A stretch of 64,000 nt of DNA, taken from positions 135,870 through 199,869 of the forward strand of contig CAWFHF010000006.1 of assembly GCA_963815615.1 (NCBI GenBank). The letters are read 5' to 3'. Positions within the stretch are counted from its first letter, which is position 1. The number at the start of each line of letters is the position of its first letter. The notes beneath the pieces were generated by a model, which had not been told where the DNA came from, did no database searches, and was given only the letters and a program-made list of their open reading frames with translations. This document shows positions 1,299 to 55,422 of this stretch, one piece after another. The position numbers were made by a program, and so were the translations under genes. Source of the stretch: an uncultured Actinomycetota bacterium (lineage in GTDB: Bacteria; Actinomycetota; Actinomycetes; Mycobacteriales; SCTD01).

Positions 1299-1311
1299 GC
1301 TGCAGCTCAGG
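1294..1311. terminator. Perfect 18-bp palindrome CCTGAGCTGCAGCTCAGG containing the stop codons of both convergent genes; candidate bidirectional terminator
   Basis: Read directly. TGA at 1296-1298 on + and TCA (=TGA) at 1307-1309 on -. No U-tract. Confidence 0.35.
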
Positions 1312-4883: not shown

Positions 4884-5091
4884 GGGGGTCCTGACCCTTC
4901 CGGGGAACTCAGGGTCCCGACCGGTTTCGGATGCCTGGCGGGGTCCCGAGGGACCTCCATAGCTCTGCGTCCCCGCCTCACGACGGGTTTGCCATTGTCG
5001 ACCGGTCCTGCTGGTGGGTGTTCCTTGCTACTGACTGGGTTGGGCCGAAGCGGACATCACTGACTACTCCCATCGGGTGACCAGGCCGCGG

Positions 5092-6574
5092 TCACGCTCC
5101 GCTCACGCGCCGGTCGAGCTCCCACCGCTGGACTACGACGCCGCGCAGGACCTGCTCCGAAGCCAGCCGGTGGGCCCGGCCCAGCGCGTCCAGCACGGCG
5201 GTCACGTCCGGGTCGGCCTCGCCGTAGAGGCCGACGTGGCTCACCACGAGGTGGACGACCGGGGCGTCGCGGACGGCAGCCGCGACGTCGTCCTCGGGCA
5301 GCGGCACGTAGAAGAACAGGTCGGCGAGGTCGGCGCCCCACGGAACAGCGCCGGGAGCGCGGGGCGGCGCCGGCGGAGGTGGCGCGGCGTAGCGCGCGAA
5401 CGGCAGCCGGACGTACGGGGCCACGAACAGGACGCGGTCGGCAGGGCCCGCCCCGGCGGTCACCGCGGCCACGGCCCCGGGCCAGTCCTCGTCCTGGGTG
5501 CGCACGTACGCCAGGCCTGCCAGCAGGCCGAGGACGACGCCTGCGGCGGTCAGGGGGACCAGGGCACGTCGCCAGGGCAGCCGGTCCAGCACCGCCGCGA
5601 GGGCCAGCACGGCAGGAGGGACGCAGACCACGAGGTAGCGGGGGGCCAGCACCGGCTGCTTCAGCGCGGAGACGGCGACGGCCAGGGCGACGGGGACGAG
5701 CAGCCAGCACGTCACCAGCACCGCGGGCCAGTGCTCGGGAGCCGCCCGCAGGGGCAGGGGACGACCCTGGGCCCGCCGGCGCAGCGCCAGTGCCGCGACG
5801 ACGGTCAGGCCGAGGACGGCGACCACCGGGGCCCCCACCAGGAGGGCGCGCGCGAAGGGGGAGCCGTCGAGGTAGCCGACGCCGCTGGCGGCCTCGTCGG
5901 TCATCAGCCGGGGCAGCCCGGAGACCACGCCGACGTACAGCACCGCCGCGGGGGCGACATGGCGCGCCCCGCACCCCCGTGCCGCGCACGAGCAGCACGG
6001 CGCAGGCGTGGGACGGCGTCATCAGCAGCGCGAAGTAGTGCGCGTACACCTGCGACGCCGGCGACCAGCGCGTACGCGATGAAGGCGGCGGCCGTCGGGC
6101 GGCGGACGGCGCGGTCGAGCAGCAGCCCGGAGGCCACCGCCAGCGCCAGCAGCAGGGCGTAGCTGCGGGCCTCCACCGCGTGGGGCACCGTGACGGGGTT
6201 GCTGACGAGCAGGAGCGGCGCCACGAGGGCCGCTCGGCGGGGCAGCAGCCGTGCGGCCAGCACCGCGAGCAGGGCGACGGCGACGGCAGTGGCCGGCGGG
6301 GAGAACACGCAGGCCGAGGTCGCCGTCGGCGAGGTGCCGCCATCCGCGCAGGAGCACGGTGTGGAGCAGCCCGTTGCCCTCCCGGTCGAGCAGCACGCGG
6401 CGGAACGACGGCGCCGGCAGGCCGGCCAGGGTCGCGCTGGCCGCCTCGTCCAGCCACAGGGGCCGACGGCCCGCGAGGCCGGCCAGCGAGCAGGAGCAGG
6501 GCCGCGCAGAGACCGAGCACGGCGCGGGGCAGCGCCGGGGTGCCGGGGAGCGCCGTACCGGTGCGTGCGGTCAC
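5092..6574 (-). pseudogene. Polytopic membrane glycosyl/mannosyltransferase, GT39/ArnT-like (GT-C); at least 3 frame breaks
   Basis: N-terminus VTARTGTALPG..AVLGLCAALLLLAG is in ORF 5057..6697 and LLDREGNGLLHTVLLRGW in 6022..6396. TM block VFSPPATAVAVALLAVLAARLL..VEARSYALLLALAVASGLLLDR is in 5904..7931, QVYAHYFALLMTP in 5057..6697, and the intact C-terminal 283 aa in 5092..5943. The GTG at 6574 forms a GTGA overlap. Confidence 0.65.
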
Positions 6575-7972
6575 CTGGTCGCGCGGGCCCGCTTCTCGCG
6601 CGCGGGAGCGCGGGGCGCGCCCGTCCGTGCGGGGCGGCAGCGGCGCGCGCTTCTGGGGTGCCGCGGACGGGACCGGGGTGTCGGCGTCGTAGTACACATC
6701 CTCCTCGCCGCCGGCCCAGCTTGACCCGGGTCAGGACCACCCCGACGACGACGACGTCCGCCGCGCGCAGGCGCGCCACCGCCTTCTCGAGCTCGGCGAC
6801 GTCCAGGCGACGGGCGTCGGCCACGAGCAGGGTGCGCTCCGCCAGGGTGAGGACGCGCAGGGTCTCGGCGACGGACTCCAGGGGGGCGTGTCGACGAGGG
6901 CGAAGGCCTTGCGCGTCCTGGCGGCGGCGAGGGCGCGCGGCAGGGCGGCGTCGAGAACCTCGAGCGGGTGCCGGTCGGGCACGCCCGCGCTCAGCAGCCT
7001 CAGCGTGGGCTCGTCCGTGCGCTGCAGCAGCCCCGCCGGCTCGAGGACGGCCGCCTCCGCGAGGCCCGGGGTCAGGGCCGCCTCGAACTGCGTGTGCTGC
7101 GTGGGACGGCGCAGGTCGGCGTCGACCAGGACCACCTGCTGGCCGGCGACGGCCAGGGCCTGCACGAGGGCGGCGCTGAGCGAGGACTTCCCCTCGCTGG
7201 CGTGCACGCGAGGTGACGGCCAACGACTGGTCGGCGCCGGTGGCCCCCGCGCCCTCGAGGCCGATGCGCACCCGCTGCAGCGCCTCGACGAAGCGGGTGT
7301 CCGCCTGGTTGCGCAGCGTGGTCCCGCGACCCAGGCGCAGGCGCGGCAGCTCGCCGAGGACGGGGACGCCGGTGCGGCTGGGCACCACGTCGGCCAGCTC
7401 GGCCCGCGTGGACAGGGCACGGGCGAGCAGCGCCGCCGCGAGCCCGGCGAGGGCGGACAGGACGAGGCCGCCGAGCAGCGCGCGGCGGCACGGGGAGGGC
7501 CCGACGGCACGGTGGGCGTCACGGCGTCGTCGAGCACGGTCAGGCGCAGGCCGGCCAGGTCCCGCGCCTGCTTCACGCGCAGGGCGAACGAGGCGGCGTT
7601 CGCGAAGCGCGCCGCGGCGTCCTGCCGGGCCGAGGTCGCGGTGATGGTGAGCAGTCCCGTGCCGGGCTCGGCGCGCGCCTCGATCTCCACGTCGGCGTCC
7701 GCGAGGTCCGAGGGCAGCGAGCCGCGGACGAGCGCGTCGTTGGCCTCGCTCGTGGCGTAGGCCGCCAGGGTGGGCACGAGCACCGAGACGGCGGACGAGT
7801 AGCTGGCGACGTCGGTGGCGTCGGCAGGCTTGGCGATGACCGTGGCGGTGGCGGTGTACCGGTCGGCGGGCAGTGCGGCCGCCGCGACGGCCAGCAGCAG
7901 GACCAGCGTGCTCGCCAGCAGCGCCGCCCAACGGTGACGCCGCAGGGCGGAGAGCAGGTCGTCCAGAGTCAC
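6571..7972 (-). pseudogene. Polysaccharide chain-length determinant (Wzz) fused to BY-type tyrosine kinase; at least 3 frame breaks
   Basis: VTLDDLLSALRRHRWAALLASTLVLLLAV (Wzz N-terminus). Walker A is SEGKSSLSAALVQALA, Walker A' is VVLVDADLRRP and Walker B is FALVDTPP, all in ORF 6731..8431. The second TM and LAVTS, then LRVLTLAERTLLVADARRLDVAEL..VVGVVLTRV, lie in 5904..7931. An acidic YY tail (EEDVYYDADT) is present. The GTG at 7972 overlaps the wzy stop (GTGA). The 3' end is inferred. Confidence 0.75.
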
Positions 7973-9379
7973 GTGCGTCCCTCGGTCTGGGTCCGGGCTC
8001 CCGGGCGGGCCGCGGAGGTGCTGTCCGAGGAGTCTTCGGCAGCCAGGGCGCTGTCCGGGTCGAGCGCCAGCGCGAGTCCGGCGAGGAGCCCGAGCAGGAC
8101 GGCCAGCCGGTACTTCTCCAGCAGCGACTCCACCATGCCCTTGGTGACCCAGGCCAGGAGGCCGGCGGTGACGGCGGCGGCCAGCCCCACCAGGGCGGCC
8201 GAGGAGGGGCGCCGGAGGCGGCCGGCGCAGGCCAGGCAGGTGCTCGTCAGGGCCGCGCCGAACAGCAGGACCCCGACCAGCCCGGTCCGCAGCAGGAGGT
8301 CTCCGGCCACGTTGTGGGTGAGTCCCGAGCTGATGAACTCGCGGGGCCCCGGCTCGTAGTAGTCGTACCGGTAGCCCAGCCCGTGACCCTGCAGCGGTGC
8401 CTCCGCGAGCAGTGGGCGCACCTCGCGCCACTGGTTGAGGCGGCCCTGCGCGGCAGCTGCTTGCCCCGGCTGTCGATCGCCTCGCTGACGCTCGCCACGA
8501 GGGGGAGGTCGTCCGGCGCCTCGCCGGCGAGCGTCGCCACCAGCGTGGGCACGGTGAACAGCGTGGCCGTGACGAGCAGGACGATCACGACGTCGCCCCC
8601 GCGGGGCAGGACGGCGCTGCCGCCGCGGACCAGCAGGACGGCGGCCACCAGCAGCCCGGCGAGCATGCCGAGCAGGGCGGCGCGCTGGCCGGCTGCCGTC
8701 GGCGTCAGGAGCAGGGCGACGGCCGCCACGAGCATCGCCGTCCGGCCGCTGCCCGCCGTGAGGGCGCGGACCAGCGCCACCAGGCCGAGCGACGCCGCGG
8801 CGGTGGCCAGGTCCGCCCCGATGCCGCCGGTGTCCAGCAGCGGCAGGAGCGGCACGGCGGCGTCGGTGAGCAGGCCGGCCTGGCTGGTCACGAGCAGCAG
8901 CCCCGCACCGGCGCCGGACCAGAGCAGGAAGCGGTCCAGGACCCGCTGCCCCACTCGGAGGGGCGCACGCCGGAGGCCACGCAGAGCACGCCCAGGTAGG
9001 CCACGGCCTTGCCCTGGTAGACGATCTCGGTGGGGTCGTTGCCGACGAGGACGCCGCGCACGCCGGCGGCGGCGTACCAGACGAGGAAGGCCGCCCAGCA
9101 CAGCGCGGGCACCGACATCGAGGTGGGCATCCCGCGCCCCACGACCCGGGCGGCGAGCGCGGCCAGGACGACGACGTCGAGCAGGCGGAAGTTCGTCGCG
9201 CCGAGGTCGGGGTGGAACAGGCCGGCGGGCACCGTGTTCGGGTCGGGCCAGACGGCCGAGTCGACCAGCACCGTGCCGAGCACCCACAGCACGACGCCGA
9301 GGGTGCGGCCGGTGCGCTCGAGGTGGACGAAGCGCAGGAACAGCCCGAGCGCGAGGGCGAGCGCCAGAGCGGCGGCCAC
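7969..9379 (-). pseudogene. wzy: O-antigen ligase/polymerase family membrane protein (Wzy-like); 2 frame breaks
   Basis: The N-terminal TM region is ORF 8888..9379 and the middle TM block is in 8247..10316. The C-terminus, with QGHGLGYRYDYY..SSGLTHNVAGDLLLRTGLVGVLLF, is in 7969..10215. Confidence 0.7.
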
Positions 9380-23437: not shown

Positions 23438-24199
23438 GGTGGGTCCACTCGCGGTAGGTGTCCATGCCCATCCAGAACCCGCGTGGGCGTGCAGGCCGAG
23501 CTGTCCCTCGTGGGCGAGCCGCTGCAGCGGCGCGTGCTCCAGCACCAGGTCCGGGTCGTCGTCGAGGTCGTCGTCGAGGAAGGACCGCTCGAAGACGAAG
23601 TAGCCGCCGCTGACCCAGCCGTCGGGCGCGGTCGGCTTCTCGTTGAAGGCGTGACGGCCCGAGGGTCGTCGTCGACGGTAGCTCGCCGTAGCGGCCGGTC
23701 GGGTGGACGCCCGTGACGGTCGCGGTCAGGCCGGTGCGGGCGTGCGCCTGCAGCAGCGCCGGCACGTCGACGGCGCCGACGCCGTCGGCGTACGTGGCCA
23801 TGAACGGGCCGTCGCCCAGGTGCTCGCGGCAGCGGCGCAGCCGGGCACCGGTGCCGTGAGCAGGCCGGTCTCGACGAAGGTGACCTCCCAGTCCTCGACG
23901 CCCACCTCGTTGTGGAAGACCGGGGCGCTGCCGTCGCCCATGTGCAGGGTGAAGTCGGAGACGTTCTCCCGGTAGTGCAGGAACCAGCGCTTGATGTCCT
24001 CGCTCCGGTAGCCGAGCGCCAGCACGAAGCGCGTCACCCCGAACGCGGCGTAGGTCTTCATGACGTGCCACAGGACCGGCTTGCCGCCGATCGCGACGAG
24101 CGGCTTGGGCAGGCGCTCGTCGACGTCGCGCAGGCGCGTGCCGAGGCCGCCGCAGAGGATGACGACCGGGACGTCTCGCGGGTCGGGGACGGCGTGCAC
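23385..24199 (-). pseudogene. rfbF: Glucose-1-phosphate cytidylyltransferase; about 3 frame breaks
   Basis: VVILCGGLGTRLR..LPKPLVAIGGKPVLWHVMKTYAAFG..VTFVETG is in ORF 23726..24199. GTGARLRR..FMATYADGVGAVDV..TVTGVHPTGRYGEL and FWMGMDTYREW..LW are in 23385..24350. LEHAPLQRLAHEGQL is in 21896..23545. Confidence 0.85.
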
Positions 24200-26748: not shown

Positions 26749-27285
26749 GTGCGCGCAGCCCTGGCCCTCGGCCTCACGGCCCTGCTGGCCACCGGCTGCT
26801 CGGGCAGCCCCGCCCCCCGCGCGGCCGGGCCCTCGCCGACGCCGTCGACCACCGCTCCGTCGGCCGCCGCCGCGGCGGCGGCCCCCTCCTGCCCGGCCGG
26901 CGGGGGCGACCGCGCCTGGCCGGCCGGCGTCCCGGCCGACCTCCCCGTCCCGCCGACGGCGGAGCTGGGCCCGGCCGAGCAGAGCCCCGGCGGCCTGACC
27001 CTGGTGCGCTTCACGACGTCGCAGTCGGTGCGCGACGGCGTCGTCTTCCTGTCCCGCGCCCTGCAGCCGGCCGGCTTCACCCTCGGGCGCGGCGACGCGG
27101 AGGCGCTCGAGGCCGACGTGCCCTTCAGCCGCGGGCCGCTGCGCGGGCTGCTCAAGATGATCGCCGACCAGCCGTGCCGCACGCAGTGGGTGCTGGCCCT
27201 GCAGACCGGCCCCGGCCCGTCCGCGGGCGCGCCGCTGCTGCAGCCCGTGACGACGGCGAGCCCCAGCCCGCTGCCCTTCGGCTGA
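26749..27285 (+). CDS. Lipoprotein of unknown function
   Basis: Intact 178-aa ORF with lipobox LLATGC, then a Pro/Ser/Ala linker and a globular C-terminus. Confidence 0.65.
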   Translation: MRAALALGLTALLATGCSGSPAPRAAGPSPTPSTTAPSAAAAAAAPSCPAGGGDRAWPAGVPADLPVPPTAELGPAEQSPGGLTLVRFTTSQSVRDGVVFLSRALQPAGFTLGRGDAEALEADVPFSRGPLRGLLKMIADQPCRTQWVLALQTGPGPSAGAPLLQPVTTASPSPLPFG

Positions 27286-27314
27286 GCCGCCCGCTGCAGG
27301 GCTAGGGTCCGCCG

Positions 27315-28246
27315 GTGGACCCGGGCGTGCTGCTGCAGGCGGTCCTCACCGGGCTGTCCGCCGGGGCCGTGCTCGGTCTGGTCGCCCTGGGCTTCACGCT
27401 CGTCGCCGGGACCGTGCGGGTGCTGCACCTGGCGCACGGCGACGTCGTCGTCGCGTCCGTGCTGACGGCGGGCGTGGTCGTGCTGGGGACGACGCCGGTG
27501 GCGACCCGGCTGGCGCCCGCACCGGCCGTGGCGCTCGTGCTGCTGGTCCTGTCCGCCGGCACCGGGCTCGCCCTGGGCGTGGCCCTGCTGGCCGTGCGCC
27601 CCTGGCTCCCCGACGTCGCCGCGGGCCGCGAGGGCGACCCCCTCGGCTGGCTGGCCGGGACGGTCGCGGCGGGGCTGGTGCTGCGCGAGGCGCTCGGCCT
27701 GCTGCTGCCCGGCGAGGGCTACGCCGTGCCCGACCCGCTGCGGCTGTCGGGGTGGGCCGAGCGCGGCGTGGTCGACCTGCCGCTCGGGGGCGTGCTCGAC
27801 GCCCGGGTGCCCGCCGTCCTCGTCCTCGGCCGCCGCGGTCGGCCTGCTGGCCGAGCGGCTGGTCGTGCGGTCGCGGGCCGGGCGGGCGATGAGGGCGGTC
27901 GCCGAGGACCCCGACGCCGCGGTGCTCTGCGGCGTCCCGCCCCGGCGCACCCTGCTGCTGGCCTTCGGCACGGCCGGGCTGCTCGCCGGCGTCGCCGGCC
28001 TGCTGGACGCCCCGGGCGGCGCGGTGTCGGTCGACGACGGCGTCGTGCTGGGGCTGGCCGGGGCGGCGGCGGCCCTGCTCGGCGGCCTCGGCTCGCTGCG
28101 CGGCGCCCTGGTCGGGGGCCTCGCGCTGGGGGTCGCCCAGCAGCTGGTCGTCGTCGGGCTGGGGGCCGGCGTGGTCCGACGTCGTCCCGCTGGGGCTGCT
28201 GGTCGTGCTGCTGGCCGTCCAGCGGGCGCCCCGGGTGCTCGTCTGA
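27315..28246 (+). pseudogene. livH: Branched-chain amino acid ABC transporter permease (LivH-like); 2 frame breaks
   Basis: LLQAVLTGLSAGAVLGLVALGFTLVAG is in ORF 27315..28640. RAMRAVAEDPDAAVLCGV..LLGGLGSLRGALVGGLALGVAQ is in 27865..29946. The end WSDVVPLGLLVVLLAVQRAPRVLV* was read by eye, with TGA at 28244-28246. Confidence 0.8.
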
Positions 28247-29196
28247 GCGCGGTCGAGGTCGCCACGGCCCTCTACCTGCTGCTGGCGGCCTTCGGCCTGG
28301 CCCTGCCGGTGGCCGCGGGCCTGCCGGTGCTCGGCCAGGGCGCGTTCGTGGCGGTCGGCGGCGTCGGCACGGCGCTGCTGGGGCCGGGCGGTGCGGGGCT
28401 CCCGCTCGGGGCGGCCTGCGCCCTGGCGGTGCTCACGGCCGGGCTGGCCGGGCTGGCTGGTCGCCCTCGGGGCCGGCCGGCTCGAGGGCGCGGCCCTCGG
28501 CCTCGCGACCTGGGGGCTCGCCTGGCTGGTGCACCGCGTCCTGCTGTCCTTCCCCGCGGTCTCGGGCGGCGCCGCCGGGCTGGTCCGCCCGACGCCGGCC
28601 CGGCTGGTCAGCCCGGTGCTCGGGGTCGAGGTGGTGCTGACCCCGCGGGTGCACGTCGTCGTCGCAGGGGTGCTGTGCCTGCTGGCCGCGGGAGCGCTGG
28701 CCCGGCTGGCCCGCGGCCCGGCCGGGCGGGACCTGGCGGCGCTGCGCGAGGGGCCGGCCCTGGCGGCGTCGCTCGGCGTGCCGGTGGCGGCGCGGCGGCG
28801 GGCGGTGCTGACGGCGGGCGCCGCGCTCGGCGGCCTGTCCGGCGCGGGCACGGTGGTGCTGCTCGGCCTGGTGGCGCCTGCCGACGTCGGCCCGCTGCTG
28901 TCGCTGCAGCTGTTCGTGGCGGTGCTGGTCGGCGGGGCGGGGCGCTGGTGGGGCCCGGTGCTCGGGGTGGCGCTGCTGACCGTGCTGCCGCGCGCCGCCG
29001 ACGCCCTCGGGGCCCTCGCCGGGTCGGACGGGCAGCGGCTGCGCGGCCTGCTGACCGCGCTGCTGCTGGTGGCGGTGCTGGCGCTGCGCCGGCTGCCGGC
29101 GCGCACGACCACGGGGGACGGCACCGGCGCGGCCACCCCGGGCGACGGCACGGGTCCGACCACCTCCCCGTCGCTCACCAGCCCCGGTGGGCGCCC
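28243..29196 (+). pseudogene. livM: Branched-chain amino acid ABC transporter permease (LivM-like); frame break near 28440; 3' end unresolved
   Basis: VEVATALYLLLAAFGLALPVAAGLPVLGQGAFVAVGG is in ORF 27865..29946. RDLAALREGPALAASLGV..GLVAPADVGPLLSLQLFVAVLVGGAGRWWGPVLG is in 28391..29458. The only start candidate is CTG at 28243 (CTGA overlap with the livH stop). No stop occurs before livG in the reading frame. Confidence 0.65.
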
Positions 29197-44677: not shown

Positions 44678-45001
44678 TCAGCGCCCCCCGCACTCCTGCT
44701 CCACGAAGGCGGCGACCGTCGCGTCCAGCCCGTCGTCGGGGCCGGCGCCGCCCTCGAGCTCGCGCAGCGCGGTGACGACGTCCTCGGGCGCCGGCGGCGT
44801 CGCCCCGAGCTGCACCAGGACGCGCCGGCTCGCCGCCCGGACGGCGGCCGCGTCGCCGTCCTCCCGCGCCGCGACCACCGTGCGCAGGTCGTCGCAGAGC
44901 GCGCTGTCCACCCGCGGCCGCCCCTCGGGGTCCGCCGCCCGCTCCTGCTCGCCGCCCCCGCACGCTGTCAGGGCCAGGACCAGCAGCAGCGCCGCCCTCA
45001 C
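44678..45001 (-). CDS. Small lipoprotein, unknown function
   Basis: GTG at 45001 (GTGA overlap with the upstream stop). Lipobox [10 protein letters not shown], with two further Cys. Confidence 0.55.
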
Positions 45002-45672
45002 GACGCCGCCCGCTCCCCGTGCTCCACGCAGCGCGCCGTCCAGCCGGTGGGGTGGACCTGCACGACCATCCGACGCCGGCACTGCGGGCAGTAGCGGGGC
45101 GGCTCGAGCTCACGGGCGCCCCGGCAGCGGGCGTGGCCCTCGCCGGTCAGCGCCTCGCCGCACTGGTCGCACCACGGCACCAGCGGCAGCGCGTAGGTGA
45201 TCAGGTGCAGGCCCGGCACCGGGTCCCAGTCGAAGGACGGGGTGCGGCTGAACCCCAGGCGCTCGTAGAGCCGGTGCGCGGCGTGCATGTCGAGCTGGCT
45301 GGACAGCCGGACGAGGTGGCAGCCGTCGGCAGCGGCGCGGTCCAGGCAGGCCCGCACCAGCGCCTCGCCGGTCCCGCGACCGCGCCCGGGGGCGGCGACG
45401 ACGAGCATCCGCACCACCGCCTCGCCCGTCGCCGCCTGCTCGGCCCACTCCCCGCCGCGGGTCGCGACGGTCACGGCGCCCAGCAGGGGAGCGTCGTCGC
45501 CCCCGTCGTCCACGGCGACGAGGACGGTCGCGCTCGCCGCCCGGGAGGCGGCGTCGCGCAGCGCGGGCTCGTAGTCGGCGCTGCTGAAGCCCTCGCCGCG
45601 GTAGACGCCGGCCGTCAGGTCGGCGACGGCCGGGAGCTCGGCGGGCAGCACCTCGCGCACACGGGTAGACAC
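44998..45672 (-). CDS. GNAT N-acetyltransferase fused to a C-terminal CxxC..CxxC zinc ribbon
   Basis: GTG at 45672 in ORF 44998..46587. Contains [20 protein letters not shown] (acetyl-CoA site) and HRLYERLGF, then CDQCGE..CPQCRRR. Confidence 0.8.
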
Positions 45673-46667: not shown

Positions 46668-48308
46668 TCAGGTCGACGACACCGGCTCCGGCAGGTCGGC
46701 CGTCACGCCGGGGTCGCCGATCTCGGCGGTGTAGTCCTCGGTGCGGGTCGTGTCCTCGCCGTCGGGCACCCGTCCGCGCAGCAGGAGCGTGCCGAGGACG
46801 CAGACCACGAGGTTCGCCAGGATCGCCAGGATGCCGGCGTAGATCGTGATCGGGGTGTCGAAGCCCAGGTTGCTGAGCGGGTAGGCCGAGCCGCCGAAGT
46901 GCTCCTTGAGCACCGTGACCTGGCCGTCGGGGCCGAAGGCGCGCTGCGGGATCTGGTACAGCGTGACCGTCCCGACGGCCATGCCGGCGACCCAGCCGGC
47001 GATGAGCGCCCTGCTGTGCAGCCAGCGCGTGTACAGGGCGATCGCGACCGCGGGCAGGGTCTGCAGCATGATCACGCCGCCGAACAGCTGCAGGTCGATG
47101 GAGAACTGCGGGTCGATGAGCAGGATGGCCAGCAGGGCGCCGACCTTGACCACCAGCGAGGCGAGCTTGCTGCTGCGCGCCTCCTGCTTCGGCGTCGCGT
47201 CCTTGTTCAGGTACTCCTTGTAGATGTTGCGGGTCCACAGGTTCGCCGCCGCGATCGACATGATCGCCGCGGGGACGAGGGCGCCGATGCCGATGGCCGC
47301 GAAGGCGACGCCGGCGAACCAGCTCGGGAACTGCTGCTCGAACAGCAGCGGGACGATGGTGTTGCCGTCCGGGCGGCCGTTCTCGCCGGTGATCGGCTTC
47401 ACGCCCGCGGCGATCGCCATGTACCCGAGCAGGGCCAGCAGGCCGAGCACGAAGCTGTAGGCGGGCAGCGCCGCCATGTTCTTCTTGATCGTGTCGCGGC
47501 TGCGCGCGGCGAACACGCCCGTGAGCGAGTGCGGGTAGAGGAACAGCGCCAGCGCCGAGCCGAACGCCAGGGTCGCGTACTGCAGCTGGTTGGTGGCGCC
47601 GAGCAGGATCCCGTCGCCGGGGTTCGGGGAGGCGTCGAACTTGGCCTCTGCGGCGCCGAAGATCTCGTCCCAGCCGCCGAGCTTGACCGGGATGACGATC
47701 ACCGCGGCGATCACGACGATGTAGATCAGCGTGTCCTTGACGAACGCGATGAGCGCCGGCGCGCGCAGCCCGGAGTTGTACGTGTAGGCCGCCAGGATGA
47801 CGAAGGCGACGATGATCGGGATCTCGCCCTCGACGCCCATCGCCTTGAGCACGGCCTCGATGCCGACGAGCTGCAGGGCGATGTAGGGCATCGTCGCGAC
47901 GATGCCGGTGAGCGCGACGAGCAGGGCCAGCGTCGGCGACCCGGAGCGCGCGCGGACGAAGTCGGCCGGCGTCACGAAGCCGTTGACGTGGCTGACCGAC
48001 CACAGCCGGGCCAGCACGAAGAACACGATCGGGTAGACCACGATCGTGTAGGGCAGCGCGAAGAAGCCGAGGGCTCCGGCGCCGAACACCAGCGCGGGGA
48101 CGGCGACGAACGTGTACGCCGTGTAGAGGTCGCCGCCGATGAGGAACCAGGTGATCCAGCCGCCGAAGCTGCGGCCGCCGAGCCCCCACTCGTCGAGGTT
48201 GTCCAGGGTGTCGCCCTTGCGCCAGCGCCCGGCGACGAAGCCCAGCGCGCTGACGGCGACGAACAGCAGCGTGAAGACGACCAGCTCGGTGGTCTGGATG
48301 CCCTCCAC
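46668..48308 (-). CDS. Sodium:solute symporter (SSS) family, monocarboxylate/acetate permease-like (MctC/ActP-like)
   Basis: Intact 546-aa ORF with 13-14 TM helices and an N-terminus typical of SSS. Confidence 0.9.
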   Translation of the reverse strand: MEGIQTTELVVFTLLFVAVSALGFVAGRWRKGDTLDNLDEWGLGGRSFGGWITWFLIGGDLYTAYTFVAVPALVFGAGALGFFALPYTIVVYPIVFFVLARLWSVSHVNGFVTPADFVRARSGSPTLALLVALTGIVATMPYIALQLVGIEAVLKAMGVEGEIPIIVAFVILAAYTYNSGLRAPALIAFVKDTLIYIVVIAAVIVIPVKLGGWDEIFGAAEAKFDASPNPGDGILLGATNQLQYATLAFGSALALFLYPHSLTGVFAARSRDTIKKNMAALPAYSFVLGLLALLGYMAIAAGVKPITGENGRPDGNTIVPLLFEQQFPSWFAGVAFAAIGIGALVPAAIMSIAAANLWTRNIYKEYLNKDATPKQEARSSKLASLVVKVGALLAILLIDPQFSIDLQLFGGVIMLQTLPAVAIALYTRWLHSRALIAGWVAGMAVGTVTLYQIPQRAFGPDGQVTVLKEHFGGSAYPLSNLGFDTPITIYAGILAILANLVVCVLGTLLLRGRVPDGEDTTRTEDYTAEIGDPGVTADLPEPVSST

Positions 48309-48309
48309 G

Positions 48310-48544
48310 TCAGCGCCCGCCCGTCTTGGTCGCGCGGTAGACCGCGTAGGTCGAGGCCACCCCGACGACGACGACGGCCAGCTGGTACCAGTAGAAGAAC
48401 GGGATGCTGAACAGCTCCGGCGTCGCCCGGTTGTAGAGCGGCGGGTACAGCGTCACCAGCAGCGGGAGCAGCAGGAGCCAGTTCCAGGGGCTGCGGTCGG
48501 TGCGGCGCGGCGGGCGGCCGGGTCGTTCGGCGGCGCGTGGTCAT
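48310..48544 (-). pseudogene. DUF3311 small membrane subunit paired with the SSS symporter; frame break near 48520
   Basis: Read by eye: SPWNWLLLLPLLVTLYPPLYNRATPELFSIPFFYWYQLAVVVVGVASTYAVYRATKTGGR*. The stop is 1 nt before the symporter GTG. The only ATG (48544) is in a different frame. Confidence 0.7.
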
Positions 48545-48639: not shown

Positions 48640-49353
48640 TCAGCCGAGCAGCGCCTGCACCAGCACGACCGCGCCGCCGGCCCCGGCCAGCAGCAGCGTC
48701 GCGCGCGCGGCGGCCGCCTCGTGCACCCGGCGGGCCAGCGGCACCCCGAGGGCCGCGCCGAGCCCGAGGGCGGCCAGGCACAGCAGCAGCGTCCGCGCCC
48801 CCACCCGCGGCAGCCCGAGCGAGGGGAGCGCCACCAGGTTCACCCCGAGGAAGTACGCCTGCAGCGTCGCGCGCTGCACCCGGGCCGGCCAGCCCGCGTT
48901 CGCCGCCCACAGGGCGACCGGCGGTCCGGCCACGCTGGCGGCCACGGTGGTCGCCCCCGCGACGACGCCCGCCGCGACGGCCCCCGCCCGCCCGCGCGCC
49001 GCCCGCCACCGCAGGCCGCTGCCCAGCAGCAGCGCTCCCAGCACGACCACACCCCCCGCCGCGGCGGCGGCCGCCCGCTCGGGCACGGCGCGGGCGAGGA
49101 CGGCGAACAGCGGCACGGTCAGCGCCGTCGGGAGCAGCAGGAGCAGCGCGCCCCGTCGGTCGACCTCGCGGCGGTAGCGCGTGACCAGCACGACGTTGAG
49201 GGCCAGGCTCAGCAGCACCCCCAGCCGGACGCCGTCCGCCGCGCCGAGGGCCGCCACGAGCAGCGGGCCGCACACCAGGCTGAAGCCGATGCCGCTGACC
49301 GACTGCGCCAGCGCCCCGACGAGCACGCTGAGGCCGACGAGCAGGGTCAGCAC
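48640..49353 (-). CDS. TauE/SafE family sulfite/anion exporter
   Basis: Intact 237-aa ORF. GALAQSVSGIGFSLVCGPLL, with 7-8 TM helices. Confidence 0.85.
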   Translation of the reverse strand: MLTLLVGLSVLVGALAQSVSGIGFSLVCGPLLVAALGAADGVRLGVLLSLALNVVLVTRYRREVDRRGALLLLLPTALTVPLFAVLARAVPERAAAAAAGGVVVLGALLLGSGLRWRAARGRAGAVAAGVVAGATTVAASVAGPPVALWAANAGWPARVQRATLQAYFLGVNLVALPSLGLPRVGARTLLLCLAALGLGAALGVPLARRVHEAAAARATLLLAGAGGAVVLVQALLG

Positions 49354-49354
49354 G

Positions 49355-49918
49355 TCAGCGGCTCAGGGCCTCGGCGCGCTCGGCCTCCGCCCGCTCGCGG
49401 GCCCCGCACCCGACGAGGTGGTCACCGACCAGCCCGCACGCCTGCAGCAGTGAGTAGACCGTCGTCGGACCGACGAACACGAACCCCGCCCGCTTGAGCC
49501 GCTTCGCCAGCCGCGCCGACGACGCCGTGCTGCCGGGCACGTCGGTCCACCGCGCGACGGCGGGGCTCGGCAGCTCGGCGTGCTCGCGGACCAGGGCGGG
49601 CAGCCCGCCGGCGTCGCGCAGGGCGAGCGTGGCCTCGGCGTTGCGCACGCAGGCGTGCAGCTTCGGGCGGCTGCGGATCAGCCGGGCGTCCTGCAGCAGC
49701 GGCGTGACGTCCTGCCCCGCGACCTGCTCGGGGTCGAAGCCGCCGAACACCTCGCGCAGGGCGTCGCGCTTGCGCAGCACGGTGATCCAGGCGAGCCCGG
49801 CCTGGAAGCCCTCCAGGCAGACCTTCTCGTACAGCTGCTGCTCCGACAGCTGCGGGCGGCCCCACTCGTCGTCGTGGTACGCCTCGTAGACGGGGTCGCC
49901 GTCTCCGAAGCACCTCAG
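49355..49918 (-). CDS. tag: DNA-3-methyladenine glycosylase I
   Basis: C-terminal part of ORF 49355..50359 with [37 protein letters not shown] and [18 protein letters not shown]. The only in-frame start is CTG at 49918 (CTGA overlap with the bioB stop). Confidence 0.85.
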
Positions 49919-50936
49919 AGCGTCGAGCCCAGCGCCTTGATCGGCATCTGGAGGTCGGCGAGCATGTCGAGGTCGGCCGTGGCGGGGCGGCCGAGCGTCG
50001 TCAGGTAGTTGCCGACGATGACGGCGTTGATGCCGCCGAGCATGCCGTCGGTGGCGAGGTCGCCGAGAGTGATCTCGCGGCCGCCGGCGAAGCGCAGGAT
50101 CGTGCGCGGCAGCGCCAGCCGGAAGACGGCGACGGCCTGCAGGGCCTCCTGCGCCGGCAGCACCGGCAGGTCGCCGAAGGGGGTGCCGGGGCGGGGGTTG
50201 AGGAAGTTCAGCGGCACCTCGTCGGGCTCGAGCACCGCGAGCTGCGCGGCGAACTCGGCCCGCTGCTCCAGCGTCTCGCCCATGCCGAGGATGCCGCCGC
50301 AGCAGACCTCCATGCCGGCGTCGCGGACCATCTCGAGCGTGCTCCAGCGCTCCTCCCACGAGTGCGTCGTCACGACGTTCGGGAAGTGCGACCGGGCGGT
50401 CTCCAGGTTGTGGTTGTAGCGGTGCACGCCCATCGCCGAGAGCCGGTCGACCTGCTCCTGGCTGAGCATCCCGAGGCTGCAGGCGACCTGGATGTCGACG
50501 GCCTCGCGGATCGCCGCGACGCCCTTCTCGACCTGGTCCATGAGCTTGTCGTCCGGCCCGCGCACGGCGGCGACGATGCAGAACTCGGTGGCGCCGGTGG
50601 CCCGCGTCTCGACGGCCGCCTTGACCAGGCTCGGGATGTCGAGCCAGGCGGCGCGCACGGGGGAGGGGAACAGGCCGGACTGGCTGCAGAAGTGGCAGTC
50701 CTCGGGGCAGCCGCCGGTCTTGAGGCTGACGATGCCCTCGACCTCGACCTCGGGCCCGCAGTGGCGCAGCCGCACCTCGTGGGCGAGCTGCAGCAGCTCG
50801 GGCAGCCGGTCGGCCGGCAGGCGCAGCGCCTCGAGGGCCTGCTCCTGGGTCAGCCCGACGCCGCGCTCGAGCACCTGCTCGCGCCCACGGCCAGCGGGTC
50901 GGTCGTCTCGGCGGGGGCGTCGATCAGCTCGGTCAC
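49915..50936 (-). CDS. bioB: Biotin synthase (apparent frame break near 50885 at the 5' end)
   Basis: ORF 49915..50874 contains [22 protein letters not shown] and [10 protein letters not shown]. An upstream [17 protein letters not shown] from GTG at 50936 would join ..REQVLERG after a 1-nt correction. Confidence 0.9.
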
Positions 50937-50979
50937 GAGCCGAGAGTCTGCCAGGTCCGCCGGGTCTGCAGCAGCGCTG

Positions 50980-51696
50980 CTACGCGCCGTGCCCGGCCCG
51001 GAAGGCGCGCGGGTCGAAGGCGCCGCCGAGCGGGCGGCCGAGCCCGCGCGCGGCGGCGAGCAGGAAGTCGTCGCGCCCCAGCGCCCCCGCGCCCTGCTCC
51101 AGCACGCCGAGCAGCGGCCGGGCGGCCAGCGTCTCCAGGTCGCGCAGGTTGCTCCGCTCGGCCAGGCCCGGCTCGGCCGGCCACGCCCCGACGACGACCC
51201 CCGACAGCTCCAGCCCGCGGTGCGCCAGCGCCTCCAGCGTCAGCGCGGTCGCGTTCAGGGTGCCGAGCCCGGCAGCGGCGACGACGAGCACGGGAGCGCG
51301 CACCGCCCGGGCGACGTCGGCCAGCGTCAGCCCGTCCTCGTCGAAGCGCACCAGCAGCCCGCCGGCGCCCTCCACGAGCACCAGGTCGTGCGCGGCGTCC
51401 AGCCGCAGCAGCAGGTCGACGCAGGCGGCGAGGTCGAGGGGGTCGCGGCCGCTGAGCCGGGCCGCCGCGGCGGGGCTGAGCGGGTCGGGGTAGCGGACGA
51501 GCTCGTGCAGCTCGGTGGCACCGGACAGGCGAGCGACGTCGGCGAGGTCGCCCGGGGCGTCGTCGGCGATGCCGGTCTGCCCGGGCTTGACGACGGCGCA
51601 CGAGGCGCCGCGGGACAGGGCCAGGGCGGCGACGGCGGCGGTCACCACGGTCTTGCCGACGTCGGTGCCGGTGCCGGTGACCACGAGGAGCGTCAT
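50980..51696 (-). CDS. bioD: Dethiobiotin synthase
   Basis: ATG at 51696 in ORF 50980..52041. Contains LVVTGTGTDVGKTVVTAA, VVKPGQTG and LVEGAGGLLV. Confidence 0.9.
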   Translation of the reverse strand: MTLLVVTGTGTDVGKTVVTAAVAALALSRGASCAVVKPGQTGIADDAPGDLADVARLSGATELHELVRYPDPLSPAAAARLSGRDPLDLAACVDLLLRLDAAHDLVLVEGAGGLLVRFDEDGLTLADVARAVRAPVLVVAAAGLGTLNATALTLEALAHRGLELSGVVVGAWPAEPGLAERSNLRDLETLAARPLLGVLEQGAGALGRDDFLLAAARGLGRPLGGAFDPRAFRAGHGA

Positions 51697-51731
51697 GGGC
51701 GACGACGGTACGGGCGGCGCGGGGCAGCGGC

Positions 51732-52732
51732 TCAGTGGCCGCCCTCGGCGGGCTCCTCCTCCTTCGCCGCGTGGCCCTCGGCCGCCTCGCCGCCCTCGTG
51801 GGCGGCCTCCTCGGCAGCGCCCTCGGTGCAGGCGGGCGCGTCCTGCTCGTGCGCGGCGGGCTCGGCCTCGTCGGCGGTCGCCTCGTGCTCGCCTCGGTGG
51901 CGGGCTCGGCCGCGTGCTCCGCGGCCTCGGCGCGGGGCGGCGTGCTCGGCGGGGGCGGCGTGCTCGGCGGCGCGGCGTGCTCGGCGGGAGCCGCGTGCTC
52001 CGCTCCCTCAGCGTGCTCGGCCACCGGCTGCGCAGCGCCACTCGCCGCGCCCGTGGTGCCGGCCATCGCGGCCCGGGCGGCCGCTGCCGCCCGCTCGGCC
52101 TCGACCTGCGCCGCCTTCGCCTGCTCCGCCGCCTGCGCGGCGAGCACCGCGGCGTGCGCGGCCTCGACCGCCTTCACCGCGGCCTTCACCGCCTCGGCCG
52201 CCTGCCCGGTGCTGCCGTGCCCGGTGCTGCCGGTGCTGCCGGTGCTGCCGGTGCTGCCGTGGCCGGCGTCGACGGCGGCCGCGCCCTCGGTGCCGCGCAG
52301 CGCCACGACGACGGGCGCGGCAGCCGCGTGCGCCGACACCTTCGCGCCCTCGCCCGACGCCGCCTCGGCGAGCTTGTCCTCCGCGGCCTGCAGCGCCTTG
52401 ACCAGGTCGACCTGCTCGGCGGCCGTCTCGTCCTCGGTCGGCGCCGCGGGCGCAGCAGCCTCGGTCCCCTCCGCGTGCTCGCCCTCCGCGGCAGCTCCCG
52501 CGTGCTCGCCCTCCGCAGCGGCCTCCCCGTGGCCCTCCTCTGCGGCAGCCGCCCCGTGCTCGCCCTCCGCAGCGGCCGTCCCGTGCGCCGCCTCCGCCGC
52601 CGGAGCGCACGCCTCGGCCCCCGCCGCCTCGGCCTCCTGCTCCCCGCCGCCCCCACAGGCAGCCAGGGCCAGCGCCAGCAGCGGGCAGAGCAGCAGGCGG
52701 GCAGGGCGTGCGAGACCGGTCACCCTGTGCAC
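51732..52732 (-). CDS. His/Glu/Ala-rich repeat lipoprotein of unknown function (frame breaks inside the C-terminal repeats)
   Basis: GTG at 52732 or 52723; lipobox LALAAC. Repeats are AAEGEHG/AAEGEHA, a (GST)n run and a central Ala-rich helix (ORF 50933..52732). The AEHAAP repeats and the tail ..AAHEGGEAAEGHAAKEEEPAEGGH* were read by eye, ending at 51732. Confidence 0.6.
52208..52258. repeat. 9-bp coding microsatellite GGTGCTGCC (4 perfect tandem copies at 52223-52258 plus one at 52208) encoding (GST)n
   Basis: Read directly. Confidence 0.9.
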
Positions 52733-52757
52733 GTCGGCGCCGGGCCGGCGCCCTGGA

Positions 52758-53888
52758 CTACCCGGTCGGGCGGTCCGGCACGGCGCGGCGGACGACGGCG
52801 GCGGCCCGGTCGAGGTCGGCGTCGGACAGGTCGGCGCGCAGGGCCAGGCGCAGGCAGGCCTCGCCGTCGGGCACGGACGGCGGCCGGAAGCAGCCCACCC
52901 GGACGCCCTCGCGCAGGCACGCCTGCTGCGCCGCCAGCGCCGTCGCGGCGTCCCCGACCGGCACCCGCACCACGGCCCCCGACGACGCCGGCACCCCGAG
53001 CGCGGCGGCGACCCGGTCGGCGGCCCGCCGCAGGCGGGCGACCCGGTCGTCGTCGACCAGGTGCAGGGCGGCCCCGGCGGCGGCCGCGGCGGACGGGGCC
53101 AGGCCGGTGTCGAAGACGAAGGAGCGGGCGGTGTCGACGAGGTGCTCGCGCAGCAGGGCGGGCCCGAGGACGGCGCCGCCCTGGCTGCCCAGCGACTTCG
53201 ACAGCGTCGCCGTCGCGACGACGTCGGGCTCGCCGGCGATCCCCGCCTCCGCGCAGGCGCCGGCCCCGGACGGGCCGCGGACCCCGAGCGCGTGGGCCTC
53301 GTCGACGAGCAGCACCGCGCCGGCGTCGCGGGCCGCGCGGTGCAGCGCCTGCAGCGGCGCGAGGTCGCCGTCGACGCTGAACACCGCGTCGGTGACCACG
53401 AGCGCCGGGCCCTCCCAGGTCGACAGCGCCCAGCGGACGGCGCCCGGGTCGCCGTGCGGGACGACCTGCACCTCGGCCCGGGACAGGCGGCAGGCGTCGA
53501 CGAGCGAGGCGTGGTTGGCGGCGTCGGACACGACGAGCGACCCGGGGCGGGCGAGCGCCGTCACGGCGCCGAGGTTCGCCAGGTAGCCGGAGGAGAAGAC
53601 CAGGGCGGACGCGAAGCCGGTGCGGGCGGCCAGCGCGCGCTCCAGGTCGCCGTGCGCCGCGGTGGTGCCGGTGACCAGGCGCGAGCCGGTCGAGCCGACG
53701 CCCCAGCCGGCGAGGGCGGCGGTCGCGGCGGCGACGACGTCGGGGTGGCGGCTGAGCCCGAGGTAGTCGTTGGAGGCGAGGTCGAGGACGTCCTCGGGGC
53801 CGGCGGGGCGCTCGACGAGGGTGCGGTGCAGCCCGGCGGCGCGGCGGTCCGCGGCCGCCTGCTCCAGCCAGGCCAGCGGGTCTCCCAC
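52758..53888 (-). CDS. bioF: 8-amino-7-oxononanoate synthase
   Basis: Intact 376-aa ORF with LDLASNDYLGL, GSTGSRLVTG, DEAHALG and TLSKSLGSQGG (PLP Lys). Confidence 0.9.
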   Translation of the reverse strand: MGDPLAWLEQAAADRRAAGLHRTLVERPAGPEDVLDLASNDYLGLSRHPDVVAAATAALAGWGVGSTGSRLVTGTTAAHGDLERALAARTGFASALVFSSGYLANLGAVTALARPGSLVVSDAANHASLVDACRLSRAEVQVVPHGDPGAVRWALSTWEGPALVVTDAVFSVDGDLAPLQALHRAARDAGAVLLVDEAHALGVRGPSGAGACAEAGIAGEPDVVATATLSKSLGSQGGAVLGPALLREHLVDTARSFVFDTGLAPSAAAAAGAALHLVDDDRVARLRRAADRVAAALGVPASSGAVVRVPVGDAATALAAQQACLREGVRVGCFRPPSVPDGEACLRLALRADLSDADLDRAAAVVRRAVPDRPTG

Positions 53889-53928
53889 CCGCCGGACGCT
53901 AGCCGGGCGCGCTCAGTAGGGTCGCGCG

Positions 53929-55422
53929 GTGTCGACGCTGACGGACCTCGCGCGGGCCCGCACCGACCTCACCCGGCCCGACGTCGACCACCTGCACCGC
54001 CTGGTCGCCGAGTGGACCCTGGTCAGCGACCTGTCCTTCGCCGACCTGGTCCTGTGGGTGCGCACCCGGTCGGGCGACTGGCTGGCGGTGGCGCTCGTCC
54101 GCCCGACGACGGGGGCGACCGCCCACCCCGAGGACCTGGTCGGCAGCACGGCCCCGGCCGAGGCGGCCCTGCGGCTGGAGCAGGCGGCGCGCAGCGGGCG
54201 GATCGTGCGCGAGGGCGACCCCGACGCCGCGCGCCGCAGCGGGCGGGTGCGCAGCGACGCCGTCCCGGTGCAGCGGGGCGGTCGGACGGTCGCCGTCCTC
54301 AGCCGGGACGCCCGGGCGTCGGCGGCGCGCACGCCGAGCCCCCTGGAGCTCGCCTACCTGTCGTCGGCGGGGGAGCTGCTGCAGATGGTCGCGGAGGGGA
54401 CCTTCCCCTACCCGGTGGAGGTGTCGGCGGAGGTCGACCCCGAGCACGCCCCCCGGGTCGGCGACGGGCTGCTGCGGCTGGACCGGACCGGCCACGTCGT
54501 CTACGCGAGCCCGAACGCCCTGTCGGCGCACCGCCGGCTCGGGGTCACGGGCGACCTGCTCGGCCAGCACCTCGGGCAGACGGTGGCGCGGCTGTCGGCG
54601 CCGAGCCGGCTGGACGAGCCGCGGGCCTCGGCGGCGCTGGCGGCGGCGCTGCGCTACGCCGAGCCGCGCGAGAGCGAGGTGGAGGCGCAGGGGGCGACCG
54701 TGCTGCTGCGGGCCATGCCGCTGGTCCCTGCGGGCGAGCGGCGCGGCGCGCTGGTGCTCGTCCGCGACGTCACCGAGCTGCGCCGGCGCGACCGCCAGCT
54801 CATGGGCAAGGACGCGACCATCCGCGAGATCCACCACCGGGTGAAGAACAACCTGCAGACCGTCGCCGCGCTGCTGCGCCTGCAGGCCCGGCGGATGGGC
54901 GACCCCGCCGCCCGCAGCGCGCTGGAGGAGTCGGTGCGCCGGGTGTCGAGCATCGCGCTGGTGCACGAGACGCTGTCGCTGACCCTGGAGGAGCGCGTCG
55001 CCTTCGACGCGGTGGCCGACCGGGTGCTGGCGATGTGCGCCGAGGTCGCGACGCCGGAGAGCGACGTCCGGGTGGTGCGCGAGGGCAGCTTCGGCGAGCT
55101 GCCCGCCCAGGTCGCGACGCCGCTCGCGATGGTGCTGACCGAGCTGGTGCAGAACGCCGTGGAGCACGCGTTCGGCAGCGACGTCCCGTCCGGGCGGGTC
55201 ACCGTGTCGGCCCGCCGGCACGCGGACGCGCTGGACGTCGTGGTCGCCGACGACGGCGCGGGCCTGCCCGAGGGCTTCGACCCGGCGGCGCCGTCGACGC
55301 TCGGGCTGCAGATCGTGCGCACCCTCGTCGAGGGCGAGCTGCGCGGCAGCCTGCTGCTGCGGACGGCGCCCGCCGGCGGCACCGAGGTGGTGCTAGGCGT
55401 CCCGCTGGAGGAGCAGGGCTGA
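53929..55422 (+). CDS. pdtaS: Cytoplasmic GAF/PAS sensor histidine kinase PdtaS (HisKA_2/HWE-type)
   Basis: Intact 497-aa ORF with REIHHRVKNNLQTVAALLRLQ and ELVQNAVEHAF..DDGAGLP. Adjacent to whiB1, as in mycobacteria. Confidence 0.85.
   Translation: MSTLTDLARARTDLTRPDVDHLHRLVAEWTLVSDLSFADLVLWVRTRSGDWLAVALVRPTTGATAHPEDLVGSTAPAEAALRLEQAARSGRIVREGDPDAARRSGRVRSDAVPVQRGGRTVAVLSRDARASAARTPSPLELAYLSSAGELLQMVAEGTFPYPVEVSAEVDPEHAPRVGDGLLRLDRTGHVVYASPNALSAHRRLGVTGDLLGQHLGQTVARLSAPSRLDEPRASAALAAALRYAEPRESEVEAQGATVLLRAMPLVPAGERRGALVLVRDVTELRRRDRQLMGKDATIREIHHRVKNNLQTVAALLRLQARRMGDPAARSALEESVRRVSSIALVHETLSLTLEERVAFDAVADRVLAMCAEVATPESDVRVVREGSFGELPAQVATPLAMVLTELVQNAVEHAFGSDVPSGRVTVSARRHADALDVVVADDGAGLPEGFDPAAPSTLGLQIVRTLVEGELRGSLLLRTAPAGGTEVVLGVPLEEQG

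Follow-up and report, generated by a model that had tools for sequence, protein, structure and literature searches.

The stretch of DNA considered here, 64,000 nucleotides (nt) of contig CAWFHF010000006.1 from an uncultured actinobacterium (assembly GCA_963815615.1, positions 135,870 to 199,869; hereafter the window), has a guanine-plus-cytosine (GC) content of 76.9% and carries a biotin operon in which a low-complexity gene, here called X, lies between bioF and bioD. X is very probably a real, conserved lipoprotein gene of an unrecognised family. The locus is laid out as follows.

53929-55422, plus strand: pdtaS-type histidine kinase gene (PF12282, GAF_PdtaS, 4e-44), divergent from bioF and the left border of the conserved locus
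52758-53888, minus strand: bioF, 8-amino-7-oxononanoate synthase, the operon's first gene (PF00155, Aminotran_1_2, 1e-50; TIGR00858, 1e-108)
51732-52732, minus strand: gene X, 334 amino acids (aa) after frame correction, start GTG at 52732, stop TGA at 51732-51734
50980-51696, minus strand: bioD, dethiobiotin synthase (PF13500, AAA_26, 9e-37), starting 35 nt past the X stop
49915-50874, minus strand: bioB, biotin synthase (TIGR00433, 5e-108)
about 49355-49921: tag, directly after bioB, with no bioA in between

The order bioF-X-bioD-bioB, proposed in an earlier reading of the letters alone (the sequence-only reading), is borne out by the TIGR00858, PF13500 and TIGR00433 matches, all on the minus strand. 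X shares that strand and is set off by gaps of 25 nt on the bioF side and 35 nt on the bioD side, a consensus scan of 49800-54100 found no terminator-like or promoter-like site, and the linkage is kept in relatives. Because the gaps are this short and no terminator lies between the genes, we infer that X is co-transcribed with bioF, bioD and bioB. The sequence-only reading was also right that the window holds no bioA: tblastn with two BioA proteins from related loci found none anywhere in the 64 kb (best E > 1). It went astray in placing X where bioA is expected. The sister clade described below has bioF-bioD-bioB-bioA-tag, other relatives have bioA-bioF-bioD or bioF-bioD-bioA, and in most of the remoter relatives bioF abuts bioD; given these gene orders, bioA would be expected after bioB or outside the bioF-bioD pair, not at the site of X.

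Neither can X be read as one open reading frame (ORF), as had been supposed. The interval 51732-52732 is 1001 nt long, which is not divisible by 3, and the frame from GTG 52732 stays open to 50933, giving 599 aa of which the last 340 are an Arg-rich, out-of-frame passage through bioD. A GC frame plot and a six-state composition hidden Markov model (HMM) place a switch of coding frame near 51891 (HMM boundary 51891/51892), and tblastn of the homologue from a related locus, L084, passes from frame -1 to frame -3 at about 51890. The register of the 18-nt repeats in a three-frame translation implies three 1-nt indels within 80 nt.

~51969 (51966-51971), minus strand: indel 1 (-1); the third AEHAAP unit has 17 nt, its C run one base short; position approximate
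~51932 (51930-51934), minus strand: indel 2 (+1); extra base after the fifth unit, restoring the original frame; position approximate
~51891 (51889-51893), minus strand: indel 3 (-1), uncompensated; one base missing in GAGGC-GAGCAC, so that uncorrected X runs to 50933

Indels 1 and 2 compensate each other, the stretch between them reading PPSTPPPPSTPPR instead of AEHAAPAEHAAP; they could be a real compensated pair or two sequencing errors. The C-terminal third of X is readable only after one single-base correction (three by the repeat register).

The frameshifts in X are probably errors, most likely indels of long-read metagenome assembly. We read them so because other genes in the window, and the pdtaS gene of a related contig (L083), are also split, and because the X indels are located in short C or G runs. 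Within the window, conserved genes look frameshifted at 27281-29147 and 487-1328 (plus strand) and at 5963-8953 and 23479-23841 (minus strand). The BPD_transp_2 domain of a LivH-type permease is divided over two frames, one with profile positions 3-79 and the second with 141-250; a LivM-type permease gene is split near 28455, and a Wzz/BY-kinase gene (6708-8022) is broken into four frame segments. These cases suggest an indel roughly every several kb, the density of a long-read assembly left unpolished. The L083 pdtaS (L083:2406-4052) is in three frame segments, and a spurious antisense ORF is called there. A programmed frameshift or phase variation of X was considered and set aside: the homologues are each read in a single frame, the runs reach no more than 2-5 nt, and the shifts also affect other genes of the window.

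With the frame corrected, the features along X, from the N terminus, are these; A3 denotes the alignment of X with its homologues from L083 and L084.

52655-52732, minus strand: signal peptide with lipobox, MHRVTGLARPARLLLCPLLALALAA followed by C (PS51257-type pattern); residue 26 is the predicted lipid-modified Cys
52583-52609, minus strand: N-terminal Cys...His-Gly pair (C42-APAAEAA-H50-G); in A3, EACAP...AAHG (X), EGCAEPAAAHG (L084) and SGCPD...AAAHG (L083)
52474-52597, minus strand: 27-nt tandem repeats, AAAEGEHG(A)-type units (Tandem Repeats Finder, TRF: period 27, 4.6 copies, score 129; period 54, score 167)
52355-52435, minus strand: conserved helix 1, residues 100-126, AAEQVDLVKALQAAEDKLAEAA (helix in the AlphaFold2, AF2, model; AEQxDLVxxLxxAE conserved in A3)
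52203-52259, minus strand: HG(STG)n run, 9/15-nt repeats (TRF); a gap in the homologues (A3), hence an insertion in the window copy only
52031-52213, minus strand: long Ala/Val-rich helix, residues 174-234 (AF2), the best-conserved and best-predicted part of X
51926-52021, minus strand: 18-nt tandem repeats, AEHAAP-type units (TRF period 18, 4.2 copies at 51926-52000, 89% matches, 5% indels)
51735-51890, minus strand: C-terminal tail, in the other frame, ending in AEGHAAKEEEPAEGGH; contains the second of the conserved Cys...His pairs (C303, codon 51828-51830; H313, codon 51798-51800)

The 27-bp repeats, the (GST)n run, the Cys of EACAP and the Ala-rich middle are thus all present as the sequence-only reading described them. 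The C-terminal AEHAAP repeats, the APACTEG Cys and the terminal AEGHAAKEEEPAEGGH are present as well, only after frame correction. The LALAAC lipobox also stands. The lipoprotein rule applied here asks for a charged n-region, a hydrophobic h-region and [LVI][ASTVI][GAS]C with the Cys at residues 15-35; X passes with CPLLALALAAC, Cys26 and R3, R9 and R12 in the n-region, and the L083 and L084 homologues pass too, that of L084 with no Lys or Arg in the first 7 residues of its annotated start. A lipobox conserved in three full-length copies argues for an exported, lipid-anchored protein.

The mature protein, 309 residues long, is 37.5% Ala, 17% Glu, 12% Gly and 6.5% His, with 20 His, 59 Asp plus Glu, a net charge of about -48, no aromatic residue and one Met. 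It has exactly two Cys besides the lipidated one, and this count and the lack of aromatics recur in both full-length homologues. The His content compares with 1.9% in confident window ORFs (binomial P 3e-6). The AF2 model, made from a two-sequence alignment, is weak (mean predicted local distance difference test score, pLDDT, 50; predicted template modelling score 0.29). It has helices at residues 100-126, 134-146 and 174-234, with pLDDT 70-90 across about residues 190-225 of the last, and tails at 28-95 and 247-328 with pLDDT below 50; the composition of the tails is consistent with disorder. Hydrophobic residues (Val, Leu) in the long helices have a heptad-like spacing.

Does this odd protein exist elsewhere? 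A phmmer search of 1.84 billion representative proteins gave a single match, P0001 (E 3e-5, 49% identity over residues 86-235), with helix 1 of X at its core. P0001 is encoded on a 1.1-kb contig (L081) between the start of pdtaS, on the opposite strand, and the start of bioD. Further relatives' contigs were reached by a BioD search and then a look-up of the contigs of the closest BioD relatives; the percentages give BioD identity to the window.

L083 (86%): pdtaS / X (304 aa, 4052-4966)-bioD-bioB-tag
L084 (87%): pdtaS / X (318 aa, 4022-4978)-bioD-bioB-tag
L088 (85%): the end of X, ACVPGEAGGAGATADEAAATEEGGH and stop (fragment, 3-80), then bioD-bioB-tag
L085 (89%; GCA_025965495.1): pdtaS / bioD-bioB-tag, no X
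L089 (83%): pdtaS / bioD, no X
L087, and L086 similarly with its contig ending after bioB (77-79%): pdtaS / bioF-bioD-bioB-bioA-tag, bioF-bioD spacer of 100 nt, no X

The pdtaS gene holds the same position in L081, L083-L087 and L089. Intact X homologues of 304-318 aa occur in L081 (P0001), L083 and L084, on the bioD strand and with the stop about 20-40 nt before bioD; L088 retains the last 25 codons of a fourth copy, with its stop 90 nt before bioD. The link to the biotin genes, which the sequence-only reading had left to a homologue search, is therefore conserved, X lying directly upstream of bioD in L081, L083, L084 and L088. The homologues' C-terminal ends just upstream of bioD read KEGH, KKAAH and EEGGH.

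The two homologues in A3 are 52% and 39% identical to X, and what the three proteins share is distributed along their length: the signal peptide with an LA(A/G)CGGG lipobox, a Cys followed by AAHG, the helix AAEQxDLVxxLxxAE, the motif AHAAAxPxVVAL, an Ala/Val helix of about 50 residues, a second Cys with H(G/E) 8-10 residues on, and a final His. Each end of the family's proteins thus has a Cys with His-Gly or His-Glu 6-17 residues on, and the last residue is always His; the Cys and the terminal His are seen also in the L088 fragment. The symmetry of the ends, noted in the sequence-only reading, is genuine and kept across the family, in tails predicted to be disordered. The repeats are less constant. 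The 27-nt repeats are mostly missing from L083 and reduced in L084, and the L084 equivalents of the 18-nt repeats are AEHSAP, PEDSAP and AEDSAP units in one frame.

GC by codon position fits the genome's coding pattern in the X frame, with third-position GC of 0.97-1.0 in mid-gene. Codon-level comparison puts the ratio of nonsynonymous to synonymous substitution rates (dN/dS) at 0.37-0.7, with about 1.8 times as many differences at third positions as at first or second ones. Between these genomes X is 39-52% identical, as against 77-93% for the flanking proteins. Judged by these comparisons, X is under purifying selection yet is evolving several times faster than its neighbours. Intact homologues with dN/dS below 1 bear out the ORF, and the frame plot, the conserved lipobox and the stop show that the composition is no artefact of a wrong strand; on the same evidence the antisense ORF was rejected as the true gene. 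Because L085 and L089 do without X, it is not essential.

Neither Pfam nor NCBIfam gave a match above threshold to X, to its core or to the homologues of L083 and L084; a profile search of PDB sequences gave none at all, and Foldseek of the low-confidence model against PDB gave nothing meaningful (best E 9). By these searches X belongs to no characterised family, in agreement with what the sequence-only reading had said. X had no tblastn match in 80 bioF-anchored loci. Word-indexed homology searches with corrected X and with a core alignment (A2) returned nothing even at E up to 10, the Ala-rich words saturating the candidates. With alignment A1, a metagenome scan gave L082 and nothing else; this lipoprotein is unrelated and matches by its signal peptide alone. 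For paralogues, an HMM search of all ORFs of the window and 88 loci found only locus-mates and signal-peptide look-alikes. The family is restricted to a small clade of uncultured soil, Frankiales-like actinobacteria.

What steps account for the present arrangement? In L083 and L084 bioF is gone, and a bioF 3'-end relic of about 20 nt (CCGCCCGACCGGGTAGTCCAG; window 52755-52775) stands upstream of X (L083, 4014-4051; L084, 3985-4010). The ancestor therefore read bioF-X-bioD, as the window does, and bioF was deleted later. A tree of BioD plus BioB groups the window with L083, L084 and L085 in 200 of 200 bootstrap replicates, with L086 and L087 as sister; the order within the clade is unresolved. 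In L087 a bioA gene (412 aa, Aminotran_3) lies between bioB and tag, and bioA is missing from that interval in the whole X-bearing clade (window, L083, L084, L085 and L088). On the simplest history, X appeared in the bioF-bioD spacer at the base of the clade, bioA was lost from the bioB-tag interval on the same branch, bioF later disappeared from some lineages, and L085 and L089 lost both bioF and X. Step by step, the clade is losing its biotin cluster. Two ideas about X drop out here: it is not a decayed bioA, to which it has no similarity in any frame, and a functional link with pdtaS is discounted since the adjacency in L083 and L084 is secondary to the bioF deletion.

What might X do? Our overall best explanation, which we hold tentatively and at slightly less than an even chance, runs as follows. 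X would be exported by the Sec system and anchored to the membrane's outer face by a lipid on Cys26. Its Ala/Val core would be short, helical and coiled-coil-like (residues about 100-146 and 174-234), with a disordered, strongly acidic tail on either side. The Cys...His-Gly pair of each tail, together with the invariant C-terminal His, may make up a small site of Cys2His2 type that takes a divalent or Cu ion; or else a disulfide between the two Cys may tie one tail to the other. Apart from the conserved Cys...His pairs and this His, X appears to have no candidate functional site. In the window's lineage, slippage-made AAAEGEHG and AEHAAP repeats would add Glu-His pairs, which could serve as low-affinity cation sites at the membrane surface. 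As for the operon, X most likely has no part in biotin chemistry and is a hitch-hiker riding on its transcription.

That metal binding is the physiological job of X is a more doubtful proposition, and several observations weigh against the explanation as a whole. X has no known homologue that would connect it with metals, and neither a transporter nor a regulator of metals adjoins it: the operon consists of bio genes and X, and the fetched loci have no metal gene neighbours. His content is 6.5% in X, 5.1% in the L084 homologue and 3.3% in that of L083, with net charges of -48, -29 and -7, and the enrichment in His is significant in X (P 3e-6) and L084 (P 6e-4), not in L083 (P 0.08), which has Pro/Thr/Ser-rich linkers in place of the repeats. 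Accordingly, the repeats are expansions by slippage, specific to lineages and dispensable for the function of the family. A dN/dS of up to 0.7 signifies weak constraint, and alignments of low-complexity sequence are uncertain; the structural model is poor; X is absent from the clade members L085 and L089, where pdtaS abuts bioD; and the case for co-transcription consists of spacing and the lack of terminator-like sites.

These same observations lend themselves to a plainer account, in which X is a generic lipoprotein of the envelope that drifts fast, for example a coiled-coil stalk or spacer, or is nearly functionless, its His/Glu tails being neutral slippage products in a genome of 77-80% GC and metal having nothing to do with its role. 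The repeats differ in kind and number among the homologues, as do His content and charge, and their codons (GCC, GAG, CAC, GGC, CCC) are all favoured at high GC; the gene has been lost in L085 and L089, dN/dS reaches 0.7, and only locus-mates were detected among the 1.84 billion proteins. One would think, however, that neutral drift would not spare the lipobox, both Cys...His pairs and the C-terminal His in every full-length copy at 39-52% identity, nor the Cys and terminal His of the L088 fragment. In addition, dN/dS is below 1 in all comparisons, and two of the three full-length copies show a 2.7- to 3.4-fold enrichment in His. We regard this account as a live possibility, if on balance still a doubtful one. 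Might X instead be a pseudogene in this genome, its frameshifts real and its decay a parallel to the deletion already seen in L085 and L089? Three indels within 80 nt, a frame open for 599 aa through bioD, slippage-prone repeat tracts and dispensability in clade members would fit such decay, yet we think it improbable. The permease and kinase genes of the window are conserved and also frameshifted, and it is unlikely that every one of them is a pseudogene; pdtaS is frameshifted in L083, a sister contig from an assembly of the same kind; the indels sit in short C/G runs, typical sites of long-read error; both halves of X keep clean coding GC, with the Cys...His pair and terminal His in the tail; and the equivalent 18-nt repeats of L084 are in one frame.

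Far less probable still is a tie to biotin, with X either replacing BioA or capturing a biotin precursor such as 7,8-diaminopelargonic acid or dethiobiotin outside the cell for bioD-bioB. All four lineages that have X have it linked to bioD, the branch on which X was gained is also the one on which the cluster lost bioA, and a DUF3311 and sodium:solute symporter pair lies nearby; one shared branch is, however, no correlation. BioA is a cytoplasmic pyridoxal phosphate enzyme and X has an export signal; X resembles neither Aminotran_3 nor BioA nor any binding-protein fold; with no aromatics and only 19 aliphatics a small-molecule pocket is unlikely; and L085 and L089 keep bioD without X (L085 demonstrably bioB too). 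As a stand-in for BioA, X was accordingly rejected. It is just as hard to believe that X is no gene, being either a chance open frame in GC-rich repeats or the complement of a true gene on the opposite strand. The sequence is of low complexity, long ORFs occupy all six frames at this GC, no family matches, and the composition HMM labels 52440-52735 as plus strand. That label is a mislabel: the lipobox is conserved, the stop shortly precedes bioD in the three full-length copies as well as in the L088 fragment, third codon positions are the variable ones with dN/dS below 1, and independent assemblies carry gene calls on the bioD strand. There is, finally, the long shot that X is a young gene, arisen de novo with repeat expansion in the spacer, possibly with a borrowed lipoprotein signal, and kept because it serves the remodelled, bioA-less cluster; it would then possibly handle a metal or a biotin precursor at the membrane surface. 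This reading is allowed because only locus-mates are detectable among the 1.84 billion representatives and the spacer of the sister clade is empty, at 100 nt.

How does an anchored, cation-binding X compare with known systems? Hpn and the tails of HypB, SlyD and UreE are cytoplasmic His-rich sequences for nickel or zinc storage or delivery in hydrogenase and urease maturation. X shares with them low-complexity stretches of His and acidic residues, which in those tails give low-affinity metal buffering; they are cytoplasmic and much denser in His, whereas X would be extracytoplasmic and the family has 3-6.5% His. ZraP, CpxP and Spy are all-helical envelope proteins with His/Gly-rich ends, and ZraP binds zinc. 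X resembles them in its helical core, in the His-Gly motifs at its termini and in its envelope location. It differs in its lipid anchor, its two conserved Cys and its far longer low-complexity tails, and X, its core, and the L083 and L084 homologues had no LTXXQ/Metal_resist match in Pfam at E up to 1. The HxsA4 His-Xaa-Ser repeat protein family (NF038313) gives a weak match (E 0.002, 19.1 bits vs a cutoff of 55) that falls only on the (STG)n insertion; the likeness is confined to the HG(STG)n run of X, which is absent from the homologues, and no HxsBCD partner genes were seen.

Another parallel in kind is with SilE and PcoE, the periplasmic 'molecular sponge' proteins of silver and copper resistance (PMC5008109). 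Like X, by prediction, they are small, exported and extracytoplasmic, with repeated His-containing motifs; they are intrinsically disordered, as the tails of X may be (PMC5008109). In both cases the motifs could bind several metal ions with helix formation, a resemblance that holds in principle only (PMC5008109). There is no sequence relationship, as neither Pfam nor NCBIfam gives a match. SilE uses His/Met motifs for Ag(I)/Cu(I), whereas mature X has Glu-His pairs and a single Met; SilE is a soluble protein whose gene accompanies those of efflux pumps, whereas X is predicted to be lipid-anchored and lies in a biotin operon with no metal genes nearby. As an accessory gene in this spacer X also has a counterpart. 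In Streptosporangiales (L014, L018, L024, L026, L029, L032 and L033, at about 7100-8100) a GntR/UTRA-type regulator of about 250 aa is encoded between bioF and bioD, and this protein is a candidate regulator of the biotin operon. Both cases are genes of about 0.8-1 kb colonising the same spacer in different actinobacterial lineages; the regulator is a transcription factor of the cytoplasm, its fold is clear and its regulatory link to biotin likely, whereas X is an exported, low-complexity protein unrelated to it in sequence.

X is best described as an uncharacterised, clade-restricted family among exported proteins of low complexity, which are a known kind. It raises no question of long standing, and on biotin synthesis itself it teaches nothing new. 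If the role proposed for it is true, X would be a new type of lipid-anchored, extracytoplasmic, His/Glu-rich cation-binding protein in actinobacteria, and its compact conserved Cys/His signature would be easy to probe by mutagenesis. Whatever its role, the locus is a clean, datable case of an operon spacer colonised by an accessory gene, and it shows the piecewise dismantling of a biotin cluster, bioA, then bioF, then X, within one small clade. There is a practical side too. Low-complexity repeat genes in long-read metagenome assemblies are easily broken by indels and then vanish from protein databases: the X copy of the window's own genome was not found in the representative-protein search, though BioD from the same contig is in the protein collection (P0002, 100% identical).

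A few other features of the window deserve mention. A small lipoprotein gene, 7 kb from X (44681-45109, minus strand), encodes a signal sequence and two further Cys, and its 5' end and that of X match over about 60 nt (score 61 vs 24.5 +/- 3.4 in shuffles); the match may reflect shared signal-sequence ancestry, or merely codon bias on similar peptides. Between tag and the DUF3311 gene lies a gene for a TauE/SafE-family membrane protein (48640-49353, minus strand; Pfam 2.9e-14), which is missing at the same position in L084 and is another lineage-specific insertion at the locus. The DUF3311 small-protein gene and its sodium:solute symporter (SSF) partner (46668-48522, minus strand) are conserved beside the bio cluster and 87-88% identical to the L084 pair; they may transport a vitamin or precursor. 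Finally, a cyclic di-GMP-I riboswitch (Rfam RF01051) is found at 4926-5003 on the minus strand, scoring 44 bits vs a gathering score of 35.

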